Shown here: positions 13,862 to 18,122 of the stretch, in pieces
Position numbering within the stretch: position 1 is the first letter of the stretch
Layout: the number at the start of each line of letters is the position of its first letter
DNA from: an uncultured Candidatus Rokubacteria bacterium
GTDB lineage: Bacteria; Methylomirabilota; Methylomirabilia; Rokubacteriales; CSP1-6
Direction: 5' to 3'
Assembly (NCBI GenBank): GCA_963841755.1
Contig: CAWJDX010000030.1
Coordinates: forward strand, 78 to 64,077
Length of the DNA: 64,000 bases
Notes under the pieces: model-generated
The model's database searches: none
Told to the model about the DNA's origin: nothing
What the model saw: the letters and a program-made list of their open reading frames with translations, nothing else
Program-made: the position numbers and the translations under genes

Positions 13862-16011
13862 CAGCCGACGCCGGCCAGGTCGAGCTTGCCGCGCCAGCGC
13901 TGGAGCAGCGCGGTACGCAGCGCGCGGTGCTCGGGGGCGAGGAGCTGCGGATCGTCGCGGATCAGGGCCACCGCGTCGCGGCGCGCGGCCTCGAGCGCGG
14001 CCGCGTCGCGCAGCAGATCCGCGACGCGGAACTCGGGCAGCCCCGACTGGCGGGTGCCGAAGAAGTCGCCCGGCCCACGCAGCGAGAGATCCGCCTCCGC
14101 GATCTTGAAGCCGTCGCCGGTGGCGGTCATCGCGTCGAGGCGCCGCCGGGCGTCCTCGGACGCGGCCCCCGAGAGCAGGACGCAGTAGCTCTTCCACGGG
14201 CCGCGCCCGACCCGGCCGCGGAGCTGGTGGAGCTGGGAGAGGCCGAAGCGCTCCGCGTGCTCGATGAGCATCACCGAGGCGTTGGGCACGTCGATGCCCA
14301 CCTCGATCACGGTGGTCGAGACCAGGATGTGGATGGCGCCCGCCTTGAACTCGCGCATGACCCGGTCCTTCTCCGCGAAGGCCATGCGCCCGTGGAGCAG
14401 GCCGATCCGGAGATCGGCGAAGACCTCGCCCTGCAGCCGCGCCGCCATCTCGGTGGCCGCGCGCAGGTCCAGGGCCTCCGATTCTTCCACCAGCGGATAG
14501 ACGACGTACACCTGGCGCCCCTCGCTCACCTGCTCGCGCAGGAAGCCGTAGATCTGCCGGCGGGCCGACTCGGTGCGGGCCTTGGTGACCACCGGCTTCC
14601 GGCCCGGCGGCAGCTCGTCGATGACCGAGACCTCGAGGTCGCCGTAGAGGGTGAGCGCGAGCGTGCGCGGGATCGGGGTGGCGGTCATCACGAGCACGTC
14701 CGGGCTCTCGCCCTTGCCCCGGAGGGTCGCGCGCTGGTTCACCCCGAAGCGATGCTGCTCGTCCACCACCGCGAGACCGAGACGCCGGAAGCGCACGTCG
14801 CCCTGCACGAGCGCGTGGGTGCCCACCACGCACTTGATGCTCCCGTCCGCGGTCCCCGCGCCCACCCGCTCGCGGGCCTTGCCCTTCACCGCGTTGGTGA
14901 GGAGCGCCACCTCCACCGCGAGGGGCTCGAGGAGCTGGGTCAGGGTCATCAGGTGCTGCTCGGCCAGGATCTCGGTCGGAGCCATCAGCGCGGTCTGGTA
15001 GCCCGACTCCACCGCGGTGAGGATCGCGAGCGCGGCCACCACCGTCTTGCCCGAGCCCACGTCGCCCTGCAGGAGCCGGTTCATCGGATAGGGCGCGGCC
15101 ATGTCCATCCGGATCTCGCGCCACACCCGCTCCTGCGCGGGCGTGAGCGCGAACGGGAGCGAGGCGAGCAGGCGCCGGGCCAGGGCGCCGGGCGGGTTCA
15201 TGGCCAGGCCCGGCTGCCGCCCCTGGCGGTGCCGGCGGATCGCGAGGCCGAGCTGCAGCAGCAGGAACTCGTCGTAGACGAGCCGCCGCCGCGCGGAGGC
15301 GTAGTCGGCATCCGTCTTGGGGAAGTGGCCGGCGCGCAGGGCCAGGCTCAGCAGCTCCAGGTGGTGGCGCGCGCGCAGGGTGTCCGGCAGCGGGTCGTCG
15401 AGGCCGTCCACGTAGCCGTCGACCAGGCGCTTCATGAGCCGACGCATCGGCCGCGCGGTGAGGCCGCGGGTCAGCCCGTAGACCGGCACGAGGCGACCGG
15501 TGTGCAGGGTCTCGTCGCCGGGCTCGCCCGCGCCGTCCCCGCTCTCGTCCTCCACGATCTCGAAGTCCTTGACCTGCATCTGCAGCGGCCCCGAGCGATA
15601 GCGCTGGACCTTGCCGTGGACGATGAGCCGCTGGCCCCGCTGGAACACGCGCTCGAGGTACGCCTGGCCGAACCACACGCAGGTGAGGAACCCGGTGCCG
15701 TCGCTCAGCAGCGCCGACAGCGGCACCCGCGGCCGCCCGCGCGGGGGCGGGCTGACCGCGCGGATCGTCCCGGACACCGTGGTCACGTCGTTGGGCTTGA
15801 GGCTCCGGAGCGGCGTGAGCTGGCTGCGGTCCTCGTGGCGCGTCGGGAGGTAGTAGAGGGCGTCCTCCACGGTGTGGAGGCCCAGGTTGGCGAGGAGCTT
15901 GGCCCGCTGCGGCCCGATGCCCTTGACGAACTGCAGCGCCGTCGCGAGGGGATGGGCCGCCTCCGGGCCCGCGCGGCGGCCCGCGGCGCCCGTCGACTTA
16001 CTCGGGGGCAA
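13861..16011 (-). CDS. recG: ATP-dependent DNA helicase RecG
   Basis: [56 protein letters not shown]. Confidence 0.97.
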
Positions 16012-16015
16012 CGGT

Positions 16016-16044
16016 TTGCCTCATGCCAGTCGCCATGCTATAAA
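16016..16044 (+). promoter_or_regulatory. sigma70 promoter for rpmB
   Basis: TTGCCT-17-TATAAA with extended TG. Confidence 0.65.
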
Positions 16045-16093
16045 GAAACGCTTCGTCCGGCAAACCACACACACAACTCAGCAGGGGATCAGC

Positions 16094-16285
16094 ATGGCTC
16101 AGCGTTGCGATGTCTGCGGGAAGGGTCCGGCCGTCGGCAACCGCATCAGTCACGCCCACAACGTGACCAAGCGGCGCTGGAACGTCAACCTCGTGTCGAT
16201 GCGGGCACGGGTCAAGGGCAGGGTCGAGCGCATGAAGGTCTGCACGCGCTGCCTCAAAGCGGGCAAGGTCGTCAAGGTCGTCTGA
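16094..16285 (+). CDS. rpmB: 50S ribosomal protein L28 (zinc-ribbon form)
   Basis: [33 protein letters not shown]...VCTRCLK; AGGGG RBS. Confidence 0.96.
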
Positions 16286-16297
16286 GGTCCGAGCATG

Positions 16298-16336
16298 AAA
16301 AGGGGACGGGGGGTGTCGCCACCCCCCGCCGTCCTC
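16298..16336 (-). terminator. Intrinsic terminator for the minus-strand AbiEi/microprotein transcript
   Basis: GC-rich stem GGGGGGTG-GCGA-CACCCCCC with flanking GGACGG/CCGTCC, followed by TTTT on the minus strand. Confidence 0.65.
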
Positions 16337-16405
16337 GTGAAGCCTGGCAGTAGCTAGTAAGAGTCCCGGTGGGAGGCCGCCACCCCCCACCGCACGACAA
16401 CAGCG

Positions 16406-16447
16406 TTACTTCTTCTTCTTCTTGGCCGCCTTCTTCTTCTTCGCCAT
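16406..16447 (-). CDS. 13-aa lysine-rich microprotein MAKKKKAAKKKKK
   Basis: ATG..TAA read by hand; AAAGGGGGTGA RBS directly upstream; all Lys codons are AAG. Confidence 0.65.
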   Translation of the reverse strand: MAKKKKAAKKKKK

Positions 16448-16497
16448 GAGGTCGTCACCCCCTTTCCTGAGAAGACTCACAACTCGCGCGCGGCTGA

Positions 16498-16569
16498 CTA
16501 CTTCCGCTTACCCTTCTTGGTGGCCTTCTTCTTGCCACCCTTCTTGACGGCCTTCTTGCGCTTCGGCAT
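16498..16569 (-). CDS. 23-aa lysine-rich microprotein MPKRKKAVKKGGKKKATKKGKRK
   Basis: ATG..TAG read by hand; GGAGGTGA RBS 8 nt upstream; begins 30 nt after the AbiEi-like stop. Confidence 0.7.
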   Translation of the reverse strand: MPKRKKAVKKGGKKKATKKGKRK

Positions 16570-16599
16570 GTGGGGTCTCACCTCCCTCCCCTCTGGGAT

Positions 16600-17646
16600 T
16601 CAGTAGCCCATCGCTTCGCGCCGGAGGTGTGCGGCCTGTTCCCGCCCCCGTCGCTCGTAGTGATAGAGATCGGCGTAGAGCTGCGGCAGGCAGACCACCG
16701 GGAGCCCGCCCTTGGCCATCGGGGCGTAGAAGACGCCCGGATCGTAGGGGGCCAGCAGGTAGACGTTGCCCTCGCCTTCCCCCGGCCGCAGCCCGAGGGC
16801 CTTCGCCACCGGCTCGGGATCGCCCTCGAGGTAGCAGTGGATGGCCGGGAACCGCACGTTGGGCGCCACCAGGGCCGCGCCGGAGTGCAGCGTGAACGCG
16901 TAGCGGCGTCGCGCCTCGTGGGCCGCCCGGCCCAGCTCGGCCACCAGCCCCCGGGTGATCCGCTCCGGCGAGAAGTAGGCCTGCACGTCGCTCTGCCGGT
17001 AGGAGTAGGCCTCGACCCAGGCGTCCAGCAGGTCGCCCGGCCGGGCGAGCTGGATGCGCTGCTGGCCGTTGCGCTCCACCCAGGACAGCTCCTCGAGCCG
17101 CTTGATGACGTTGTGGGCGTGCCCCAGGCTCACCTCCGACGCCTTGGCCAGCTCCTCGAGCCGCCAGGCGTGCTGGGGGTCGACCAGCATGACCCGCACG
17201 ACCCGCGTGGCCCGGGGCGCGAACAGCGACTTGAGCGGCCGGGTGGAGGGGCGCAGGTTCGGCTTCCCCTCCTTCTCGATCAGCACGTTCTCGAAGCTCA
17301 GGTAGCAGTTCCCGGAGAGGTCCAGGTACCCGAGCCCGCTGCGCTTCAGCAGGGCCGCGCTCTGCGGGCTGATGTACGGAGAGACCGCCACCGGGTACGC
17401 CTCGGGCATCTCCCGCCTGATCTCCGAAAGGCGTGTCACCGCCTCCCGGATCTGCCGAGGCTGGCCGAGGGAAGTCACTCCGATCGCGATGGCGTGAGGT
17501 CGATCGCCCATCTTGAATTTGATCAACAAATCAATAGTTTGTGATCCAGACTTCACGTCGACAGACTGCTCCCAGCCGCTGGCCTTGCCCATTAGCTCGC
17601 GCACTCTCTGCGCCGCCAGCATCCTGATATCGTCTGCTTTCGCCAT
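16600..17646 (-). CDS. Type IV toxin-antitoxin AbiEi-family (DUF2186/AbiEi_2-like) antitoxin / wHTH regulator
   Basis: PYISP..AALL...G.GYLDLSGNCYL; central HTH WRLEELAKASEVSLGHAHNVIKRLEE; LLDAW; C-terminal VCLPQLYADLY...RGREQA. Confidence 0.75.
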   Translation of the reverse strand: MAKADDIRMLAAQRVRELMGKASGWEQSVDVKSGSQTIDLLIKFKMGDRPHAIAIGVTSLGQPRQIREAVTRLSEIRREMPEAYPVAVSPYISPQSAALLKRSGLGYLDLSGNCYLSFENVLIEKEGKPNLRPSTRPLKSLFAPRATRVVRVMLVDPQHAWRLEELAKASEVSLGHAHNVIKRLEELSWVERNGQQRIQLARPGDLLDAWVEAYSYRQSDVQAYFSPERITRGLVAELGRAAHEARRRYAFTLHSGAALVAPNVRFPAIHCYLEGDPEPVAKALGLRPGEGEGNVYLLAPYDPGVFYAPMAKGGLPVVCLPQLYADLYHYERRGREQAAHLRREAMGY

Positions 17647-17660
17647 CCCTTCACGTCCAC

Positions 17661-17724
17661 TTTCACTTGTGCCGTCATTTTCAGCGTATGCTGAAACCAT
17701 AGGGACAAATGAAATTCCTGTCAA
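17661..17724 (-). promoter_or_regulatory. sigma70 promoter overlapped by a 25-bp imperfect inverted repeat operator
   Basis: TTGACA-17-TATGGT; arms TTTCATTTGTCCCTATGGTTTCAGC / GCTGAAAATGACGGCACAAGTGAAA (18/25 match, 4-nt spacer) at 17661-17714. Confidence 0.75.
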
Positions 17725-17747
17725 GCAAAAATCTTGCGGATGCGGCG

Positions 17748-18122
17748 CTAGCCCCGCTCCCCGTCGATGCCATCCATGGTCTCGTCGTCGAGGCCGAAGT
17801 AGTGGCCCACCTCGTGGACCACCACGTCGCGGACGAGATCCGCCATCTCCTCGGGGTCGTCGCAGTCCTCCTCGATCGGCCCCTGGTAGATGTGGATGGT
17901 GTCGGGCAGCACGTTGCCGTAGGAGGAGTCCCGGCGGGTGATGTCCACCCCCCGGTAGAGCCCATAGAGGGTATCGGGAGGCTCGATGCCCATCTCGTCG
18001 AGGGTCGCGTCGTCGGCCCAGTCCTCGACCACGACGGCGATGTTGGCGAGCTTGTCGCGGAAGGCGCGGGGCAGGCGGCGGAGGGCGGTGTCGACGAGGG
18101 CTTCGAACTCCCGGCGGGTCAT
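17748..18122 (-). CDS. Zincin-like metallopeptidase (Zincin_1/DUF1025)
   Basis: LYGLYRG, PDTIHIYQGPI, VVVHEVGHYFGLDD. Confidence 0.9.
   Translation of the reverse strand: MTRREFEALVDTALRRLPRAFRDKLANIAVVVEDWADDATLDEMGIEPPDTLYGLYRGVDITRRDSSYGNVLPDTIHIYQGPIEEDCDDPEEMADLVRDVVVHEVGHYFGLDDETMDGIDGERG

Follow-up and report, generated by a model that had tools for sequence, protein, structure and literature searches.

AbiE is a type IV toxin–antitoxin system, described in Streptococcus agalactiae and Lactococcus and, as MenA/MenT, in mycobacteria. It is encoded by a bicistron in which the gene of the AbiEi antitoxin comes first and that of a nucleotidyltransferase toxin, AbiEii/DUF1814, comes second. 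AbiEi represses its own transcription through inverted repeats in its own promoter, as set out in parts of PMC7319586 and PMC3985639. Here we describe a locus on contig CAWJDX010000030.1 of an uncultured Candidatus Rokubacteria bacterium, within an analysed stretch of 64,000 nucleotides (nt; the window), in which a gene for an AbiEi-like regulator is followed by two lysine-rich open reading frames (ORFs) of 23 and 13 codons. By sequence comparison the unit appears to be an operon that is peculiar to the order Rokubacteriales (Methylomirabilota) and passed on vertically; it is neither a chance arrangement nor a decaying toxin–antitoxin remnant. On balance we think it probable that a domesticated AbiEi autorepressor provides conditional extra expression of translated, polyanion-binding oligolysine micro-proteins. 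A first-pass annotation had marked a promoter, an inverted repeat, a gene of 348 amino acids (aa), ORFs of 23 and 13 aa, ribosome-binding sites, a hairpin and a terminator, and each element was recovered where it had been placed:

17696..17724, minus strand: sigma-70-type promoter TTGACA-17-TATGGT, -35 element at 17724..17719 and -10 element at 17701..17696, with a T-tract just before it
17661..17714, minus strand: putative operator, a long inverted repeat with four TTTCA/TGAAA half-sites
17661-17685 and 17690-17714, minus strand: arms of the inverted repeat, 25 nt each, 72% complementary
17696..17679, minus strand: core palindrome TTTCAGC-N4-GCTGAAA, perfect, overlapping the -10 element and the transcription start region
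16600..17646, minus strand: regulator ORF, 348 aa, a three-domain protein of the AbiEi_2 family
16578..16585, minus strand: Shine-Dalgarno (SD) sequence of ORF1, GGAGGTGA, kept in orthologue loci
16498..16569, minus strand: ORF1 (micro-gene 1), 23 codons, peptide MPKRKKAVKKGGKKKATKKGKRK, stop TAG
16455..16462, minus strand: SD sequence of ORF2, GGGGGTGA, kept in orthologue loci
16406..16447, minus strand: ORF2 (micro-gene 2), 13 codons, peptide MAKKKKAAKKKKK, stop TAA
16367..16392, minus strand: G+C-rich hairpin 3' of ORF2
16296..16330, minus strand: predicted intrinsic terminator, an 11-base-pair stem followed by CCCTTTTCA (hairpin and T-run at 16330..16305), facing the convergent end of rpmB

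Lysine-rich ORFs with an SD sequence lie downstream of the regulator gene in 74 of 74 distinct orthologue loci, as a pair in 62, singly in 10 and as a trio in 2. Their conservation in orthologues had been named as a check by the first-pass annotation, and it is borne out. An AbiEii-like nucleotidyltransferase gene was found at none of these 74 loci. Paralogues of the regulator, with about 40% identity to it and the same three-domain architecture, differ in this respect: an AbiEii-like gene is located directly downstream in 9 of 10 paralogue loci, and at some of them it overlaps the regulator paralogue. The paralogue toxin matches PF08843 with 27.2 bits at one locus (L056; cut-off 22.5) and 22.0 bits at another (L057). 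Lysine-rich ORFs are absent from all 10 paralogue loci. Given a toxin gene in 9/10 paralogue loci and in 0/74 orthologue loci, we conclude that the toxin is the usual partner of the family and was lost by the Rokubacterial clade. Simple toxin loss within a family whose orthologues are normally followed by AbiEii, the outcome that the annotation had set against its own reading, is not what the loci look like. In the window no nucleotidyltransferase gene follows 3' of the regulator, again as annotated, and the next gene is rpmB. The genome assembly (G000, 84% complete) contains neither a PF08843 match nor a match to the paralogue's toxin. The unit therefore lacks the bicistron with an AbiEii/DUF1814 toxin that defines the AbiE type IV systems.

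A FastTree phylogeny was built from the 74 orthologues, 10 paralogues and 72 database representatives. It groups every orthologue in one clade (support 100), which also contains the representative P0124 (55% identical, without genomic context). A single clade of orthologues fits the term 'domesticated antitoxin' of the annotation. That the protein would also regulate the peptides, as proposed there, is suggested by the layout of the operon, the conserved operator and metatranscriptome contigs that bridge the genes. The regulator gene is present in a single copy in the 4.97-Mb assembly, and 39 of 41 related genomes have an orthologue, with identities of 54-98%. Among 201 genomes sampled across the phylum, G000 included, orthologues with at least 54% identity were found in 121/125 genomes of family f1, 16/16 of f4, 1/1 of f3 and 1/1 of f5; the other families of the class yielded only scattered matches of at most 43% identity. 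Setting aside the unpublished genomes G068, G084, G095 and G132 gives 73/73 orthologue loci and 8/9 paralogue loci and alters no conclusion. G132 supplies orthologue locus L066 and paralogue locus L057; G068, G095 and G132 are counted in the tallies by family and by DNA pattern (below), G084 in the family tally alone.

The position of the unit points to a single origin in the order. It is flanked upstream by a Zincin_1 gene and relA and downstream by convergent rpmB (L28), which ends at 16285, and then recG. Convergent rpmB is present in 72 and recG beyond it in 66 of the 74 orthologue loci, the counts falling short of 74 because of contig ends. In five of five genomes from five sister families (L212-L216), relA and rpmB converge on each other directly, separated by 19-125 nt that contain no lysine-rich mini-ORF. 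As the two genes abut in the sister families, the module block is an insertion. The regulator/micro-gene module thus entered this site once, in the order's ancestor, and the Zincin_1 gene arrived there either jointly with it or in succession.

The regulator has the domain composition of an AbiEi antitoxin with an additional domain at its N terminus. Pfam family AbiEi_2 (PF09952) matches residues 199-342 with 26.5 bits (cut-off 21), and with 28.5 bits in the genome-wide scan, so that the 348-aa protein belongs to the AbiEi family by its C-terminal domain. Near-identical database proteins are named 'AbiEi family antitoxin [Methylomirabilota bacterium]'. We compared the AlphaFold model (predicted local distance difference test score 95.7) with known structures. 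Residues 1-125 have a PD-(D/E)xK nuclease fold, for which AF1548, NucS/EndoMS and PaqCI score Z values of 9.6-10.5 (AF1548, 10.5). Residues 139-214 form a winged helix resembling CRP, MarR and IclR at Z 8-10. Together with sub-threshold profile matches to the helix-turn-helix (HTH) domains of IclR, MarR and GntR at residues 159-197, this places a winged HTH N-terminal to the AbiEi domain. The C-terminal part, residues 228-348, folds like a nucleotidyltransferase, as do ANT(2''), MenT1 (a toxin) and the antitoxin AbiEi; residues 233-348 align with AbiEi (6y8q) at Z 8.8 and a root-mean-square deviation of 2.8 over 103 residues. The AbiEi-like identity assigned in the annotation is thus confirmed by both profile and structure. 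A sequence search against solved structures returned only weak HTH matches for the regulator (best expectation value (E) 0.035).

The C-terminal domain (window 16600-16920) resembles MenT1 (8an4, Z 10.2) and ANT(2'') (Z 10.5) as well as AbiEi (Z 8.8), and no D-x-D motif is evident in it by eye. This suggests that the antitoxin domain may have originated from the toxin fold as a degenerate copy. Decay is visible at the N terminus. The D...ExK motif, lysine included, is retained in the consensus of the wider family; the lysine is lost in 73 of the 74 orthologues, and in the genus of the window the glutamate has been replaced by glycine, too. The domain thus has the fold of a PD-(D/E)xK nuclease and, in 73/74 cases, no motif lysine, which makes a non-catalytic role in sensing or binding probable.

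The region upstream of the regulator is near-invariant despite protein identity down to 54%. Its elements occur in the order T-tract, TTGACA, spacer TTTCA, -10 element, TTTCAGC-N4-GCTGAAA, (G)TGAAA, start codon. TTGACA was found in 71/74 orthologue upstream regions. The core palindrome is exact in 69/74 and differs at no more than one position in all 74. The loci with an exact core all have the spacer TTTCA (69/69), and in 67 of these 69 the distance between palindrome and -35 element is fixed at 28-29 nt. By analogy, this layout, which mirrors AbiEi autoregulation as described in parts of the two papers cited above, marks the repeat as a putative operator. The 4.97-Mb genome has no second copy of the core palindrome, and on this ground we rejected a regulon extending to the stand-alone micro-gene described below. 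TTGACA-17-TATGGT is the sole sigma-70-like site in 15800..18000 (mean for shuffled sequence, 0.1), and within this interval no promoter-like site lies between the regulator and the micro-ORFs or elsewhere in the unit. Only 22 of 74 orthologues have an SD-like motif before the start codon of the regulator.

The 74 orthologue loci yield 140 micro-ORFs of 10-25 codons, the first of which begins about 30-70 nt after the regulator stop codon in most loci. After the initiator, the 140 ORFs encode only K, A, R, G, T, V, P, S and H; acidic, aromatic and large hydrophobic residues are absent from all of them. The commonest peptides are MAKKKKAAKKKKK (30 copies), MAKKKAAKKKKK (29) and MAKKKAAKKKK (11). 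The 22-25-codon form of ORF1 is confined to the genus of the window and some relatives, and in other lineages ORF1 has 11-15 codons. Start codons are ATG (125), GTG (14) and TTG (1). Stop codons are TAG (77) and TAA (63) and never TGA, the stop of 1082 long ORFs in the genome (60%; TAG 615, TAA 99). The identical peptide MAKKKAAKKKKK is encoded by 17 distinct DNA sequences. Variation in the 12-codon class is concentrated at third codon positions (67 versus 24 and 26); the excess is weak in the 11- and 13-codon classes and absent in the 23-codon class. Lengths change by whole codons, K/R exchanges preserve the charge, and exchanges among A, T and G occur as well. This pattern of evolution argues for translation of the micro-ORFs.

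In the window (16569-16602), the regulator's reading frame continues past its TGA into ORF1 without meeting another stop codon, and read-through would append a lysine-rich tail to the regulator. Stop-codon read-through was rejected as a conserved feature because orthologues do not keep this frame: their regulator and ORF1 are offset by 33, 34, 36, 37, 52, 53, 62, 68 or 73 nt. A structured 3' RNA was likewise rejected: the predicted fold of 16296-16605 is unremarkable (z -1.78).

The exact 23-aa peptide is already on record from JGI/IMG, on 11 contigs and with no name. The annotation's statement that gene callers would miss both peptides is thus only partly right, the 23-aa peptide having been called before. 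The residue set of the 140 ORFs lacks the hydrophobic transmembrane segment that characterizes type I toxins such as Hok, Fst and TisB. In a search of NCBIfam models at E up to 1, the 23-aa peptide matched none of the tiny basic ribosomal protein families bL37, bS22, Thx and eL41. An attenuator leader peptide is not indicated either, as the ORFs come last in the unit and the terminator and convergent rpmB lie beyond them. Neither a description of oligolysine micro-genes nor the peptide strings were found in the literature searched, which did not cover supplements, where such ORFs might be listed.

Contigs from soil metatranscriptome libraries of separate studies match the unit. A 451-nt contig (X4 record 26) spans 16407-16740 and includes ORF2, ORF1 and the 3' end of the regulator gene with 3 differences. 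A 351-nt contig (X1 record 5) spans 16519-16869, covering the 3' end of the regulator gene and part of ORF1 only, and a 43-nt contig (X2 record 17) is an exact match to ORF2, 16406-16447. Peaks of metatranscriptome depth over both ORFs were set aside, as they sum lysine-rich contigs of other organisms.

Micro-genes of this kind also exist outside the module. G000 contains a third copy, MAKKKAAKKKKKK, at L219:2015-2056 (contig C5, minus strand), with its own TTGACA...TATTGT promoter, SD sequence and hairpins, flanked by genes for a phosphoribosyltransferase-domain protein and an EamA transporter. The conserved stand-alone unit consists of CTTGACA-17-TAGCAT, a 5' leader, the SD sequence GGAGGTGA, the ORF and a hairpin GGCCCTGTCG...CGGCAGGGCC. 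Its promoter lacks the operator core, and a convergent gene often comes next, as seen in several genomes. A strict DNA pattern for MAKKKA[A/T]KKKK was found in 91/125 genomes of family f1 and 15/16 of f4, often at a second, unlinked locus, and in 0/57 genomes of the other families of the class. The reversed pattern, used as a control, gave 0 matches.

A different lysine-rich ORF of the same genome, MAKGQNMKKEKKKPKKEKK, has 19 codons and a strong SD sequence and is located directly upstream of an ABC-F type ATPase gene (L218:2400-2459, contig C21, minus strand). The ATPase has two ABC_tran domains, ABC_tran_Xtn and ABC_tran_CTD. The ORF resembles a polybasic leader for a factor of the ribosome-associated ABC-F type.

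A wide scan with one genome per prokaryotic species found matches in at least 119 stretches, from which 80 loci were examined. These 80 loci contain 89 matches, and 87 of them end within 14 codons. Among the matches listed are Nano-, Woese- and Pacearchaeota and other archaea of 27-52% G+C as well as Brocadiales, Bdellovibrionales, Spirochaetia, FCPU426, Eisenbacteria and Armatimonadetes, and an SD-like GAGGTGA precedes many of them. An AbiEi_2-like neighbour occurs, among the matches listed, only on Rokubacteria-type contigs of 63-72% G+C. The low-G+C copies use both lysine codons (AAA 89, AAG 102). Neighbouring genes vary by lineage: Peptidase_M50 in some, DNA ligase and a DHH protein in others, phosphoglucomutase and FtsK in yet others. 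From these sequences, oligolysine micro-genes look like a real but undescribed kind of micro-gene.

The scan also yielded several observations on individual lineages. Micro-genes for MAKKKAAKKKK(K/R), with 11-13 codons and a GAGGTGA-type SD sequence, are present at L097, L116, L118, L127, L134, L136-L138, L142, L152, L156 and other loci; among those of DPANN and other archaea (27-52% G+C), at least five adjoin a Peptidase_M50 membrane protein gene, and others adjoin the DNA ligase and DHH pair. TGA stops are also absent from 87 short ORFs of other lineages. Four loci (L133, L147, L151 and L163) are titled Nitrosocosmicus, Acidoferrum or Deferrimicrobiaceae, yet have 67-73% G+C and micro-gene loci of the Rokubacteria type, and L151 also carries an AbiEi-like orthologue with 65% identity. 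These four are probably mis-binned contigs.

The mechanism we propose starts from an AbiEi/AbiEii toxin–antitoxin pair whose loss of the nucleotidyltransferase would have given rise to the Rokubacteriales operon. The 348-aa protein would act as a repressor through its winged helix, with the degenerate nuclease-like domain as a sensor alongside the AbiEi C domain. It would bind the four TTTCA half-sites over its own -35, -10 and start region and thereby keep its own promoter off. When a cue lifts repression, one mRNA would be made. Translation of this mRNA is predicted to be low for the regulator, because its gene mostly has no SD sequence, and high for the two oligolysine peptides (11-25 residues, net charge about +9 to +14), because each micro-gene combines a near-perfect SD sequence with a TAA or TAG stop. 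The peptides would be real translated products, as their evolution indicates, and members of a widespread class of undescribed oligolysine micro-genes. A constitutive copy already stands alone in these genomes, so the regulated pair would add dosage conditionally. Judging from composition, our guess is that the peptides are most likely small diffusible polycations that bind RNA or ribosomes, and less likely DNA, much as bL37, bS22, Thx and eL41 do. We infer repression, co-transcription, translation, cue and target alike from sequence.

Several observations weigh against this proposal. The case for translation is weakened by the two-codon degeneracy of lysine and the relatedness of the genomes, and the excess at third positions is slight among ORFs of 11 and 13 codons and missing among those of 23. 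With just two lysine codons, and AAG the expected one at 71% G+C, codon usage provides modest evidence. Nothing ties the peptides to ribosomes by family, as the 23-aa peptide has no NCBIfam match at E up to 1. Adjacency to rpmB, considered as a ribosomal clue, was rejected since insertion between relA and rpmB explains it, and this neighbourhood lends no support to a ribosome link. A crude test for a hairpin plus T-run was positive in just 42 of 74 orthologue loci. The annotation had called for a check of co-transcription in metatranscriptomes. Contigs do bridge the regulator and the micro-ORFs, but libraries of this type may hold DNA, and a contig across genes is no proof of a single transcript. 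Finally, the invariant operator stems could equally form a 5' RNA hairpin, a reading that is tempered by the outer TTTCA, which is not transcribed because it is located upstream of the -10 element.

The micro-ORFs fill the exact slot that AbiEii occupies in 9/10 paralogue loci, the AbiEi-style autorepressor layout is retained, and strong SD sequences would release a burst of polycation upon derepression. These features would suit a rewired abortive-infection or toxin–antitoxin module in which the oligolysine peptides are a toxic effector that the AbiEi-type repressor silences until phage attack or stress. The first-pass annotation had offered a similar idea, a new effector occupying the toxin slot, and both parts of it have lost ground. 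A stand-alone copy with a consensus-like promoter and no operator, present in the same genomes, is hard to square with toxicity, and near-identical micro-ORFs stand alone, free of AbiEi, in small DPANN genomes and in other unrelated bacteria and archaea. The fixed site, single copy and vertical descent over the whole order, with no sign of mobility, do not suit such a module, which we consider unlikely. We judge it just as unlikely that the micro-ORFs act in cis, so that their translation is what matters, for instance as a sensor of Lys-tRNA or of polybasic stalling, or in protecting the 3' end of the regulator mRNA. Runs of lysine codons are classic stalling and sensor sequences, and the 19-codon ORF before the ABC-F gene resembles a leader; however, the micro-ORFs are at the 3' end of the unit, where the terminator and convergent gene leave nothing downstream for them to control. 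The stand-alone copy has its own promoter and hairpin, with a convergent gene next in several genomes, and the exact peptide is kept across phyla with different codons.

The independent existence of micro-genes in the same genomes and in other phyla would also be expected if they were the functional unit and the AbiEi-like gene had landed upstream once, sharing a transcript without meaningful regulation. The pairing, however, is kept at 74/74 loci down to 54% protein identity, regulator and micro-ORF are only about 30-70 nt apart with no promoter-like site between them in the window, and sister lineages have neither part at the relA-rpmB site. Such a mere neighbourhood seems to us slightly less likely again than an effector or a cis-acting role. 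Very improbable is an action of the region as RNA, such as a purine-rich small RNA or a protein sponge, with the ORFs remaining untranslated. AAG repeats and GGA-containing SD motifs do make up a low-complexity RNA that could bind proteins, yet the 140 ORFs keep their start and stop codons and the spacing of their SD sequences, their lengths change by whole codons, and K/R exchanges conserve charge. Moreover, 15800-18000 has no Rfam match at E up to 1, and the 3' fold reaches a z of only -1.78.

If the domesticated autorepressor does govern conditional expression of the micro-proteins, the locus represents a clean, order-wide case of the domestication of a toxin–antitoxin regulator after toxin loss, with the operator kept, the nuclease motif decayed and a new cargo acquired. 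It also offers a tractable handle on oligolysine micro-genes of 11-25 codons. Two copies are placed behind a putative dedicated repressor with a defined, unique operator; therefore, the condition of expression and the function could be approached by reporter assays, electrophoretic mobility shift assays and peptide binding, although the hosts are uncultured. Should the peptides be bound to the ribosome or nucleoid, a basic cell component would have been overlooked in many uncultured bacteria and archaea. More speculatively, and with considerable doubt, MAKKKAAKKKK-type micro-genes may be among the shortest conserved protein genes and form an unannotated class that encodes a general polycationic cofactor of the translation or nucleic-acid machinery in bacteria and archaea, reduced DPANN included, for which Rokubacteria would have captured a former phage-defence antitoxin to obtain two additional, inducible copies. 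If true, this capture would be the first instance of a toxin–antitoxin regulator rewired to control micro-proteins.

Among known polycationic proteins, lysine/alanine-rich sequences are found in histone-H1-like proteins and tails, such as chlamydial Hc1/Hc2, AlgP and the tail of actinobacterial HupB. The peptides described here share with these the AKKA-type composition and the presumed affinity for polyanions. They differ in that the repeats of Hc1/Hc2, AlgP and HupB are embedded in proteins of roughly 100 aa or more, whereas here one unit of 11-25 aa is the whole product. Closer in size are the tiny polybasic ribosomal proteins bL37 (24 aa), bS22 (33 aa), Thx (26 aa) and eL41 (25 aa). Like the oligolysine peptides, these are very short, extremely basic, lineage-restricted, often unannotated and equipped with strong expression signals. 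Unlike them, the peptides here are shorter still (commonly 11-13 aa) and consist of nearly all lysine and alanine, with few arginines and no aromatic residues. They have no sequence match to these proteins and are not known to associate with ribosomes, and each genome encodes several of them, two behind a presumed repressor. Of the ribosomal proteins, bS22 and bL37 are treated in the literature, for example in part of PMC10081302. The combination of a constitutive copy with extra copies under a dedicated repressor recalls the Zur-regulated zinc-free paralogues of ribosomal proteins, as described in part of PMC6094098, an analogy of layout only. The regulator itself is most like that of AbiE in S. 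agalactiae, Lactococcus and mycobacteria. It shares the AbiEi_2 C domain, the winged helix, the position as first gene and a promoter overlapped by long inverted repeats, the last as reported for AbiEi autoregulation in parts of PMC7319586 and PMC3985639. In contrast to AbiE, the operon contains no AbiEii/DUF1814 toxin (0/74 loci), nor was one found in G000 (84% complete), and the regulator has an extra N-terminal nuclease-like domain that has lost its catalytic lysine. Here the unit sits as a single copy at a fixed chromosomal site, is inherited throughout the order and has oligolysine micro-genes in second place.

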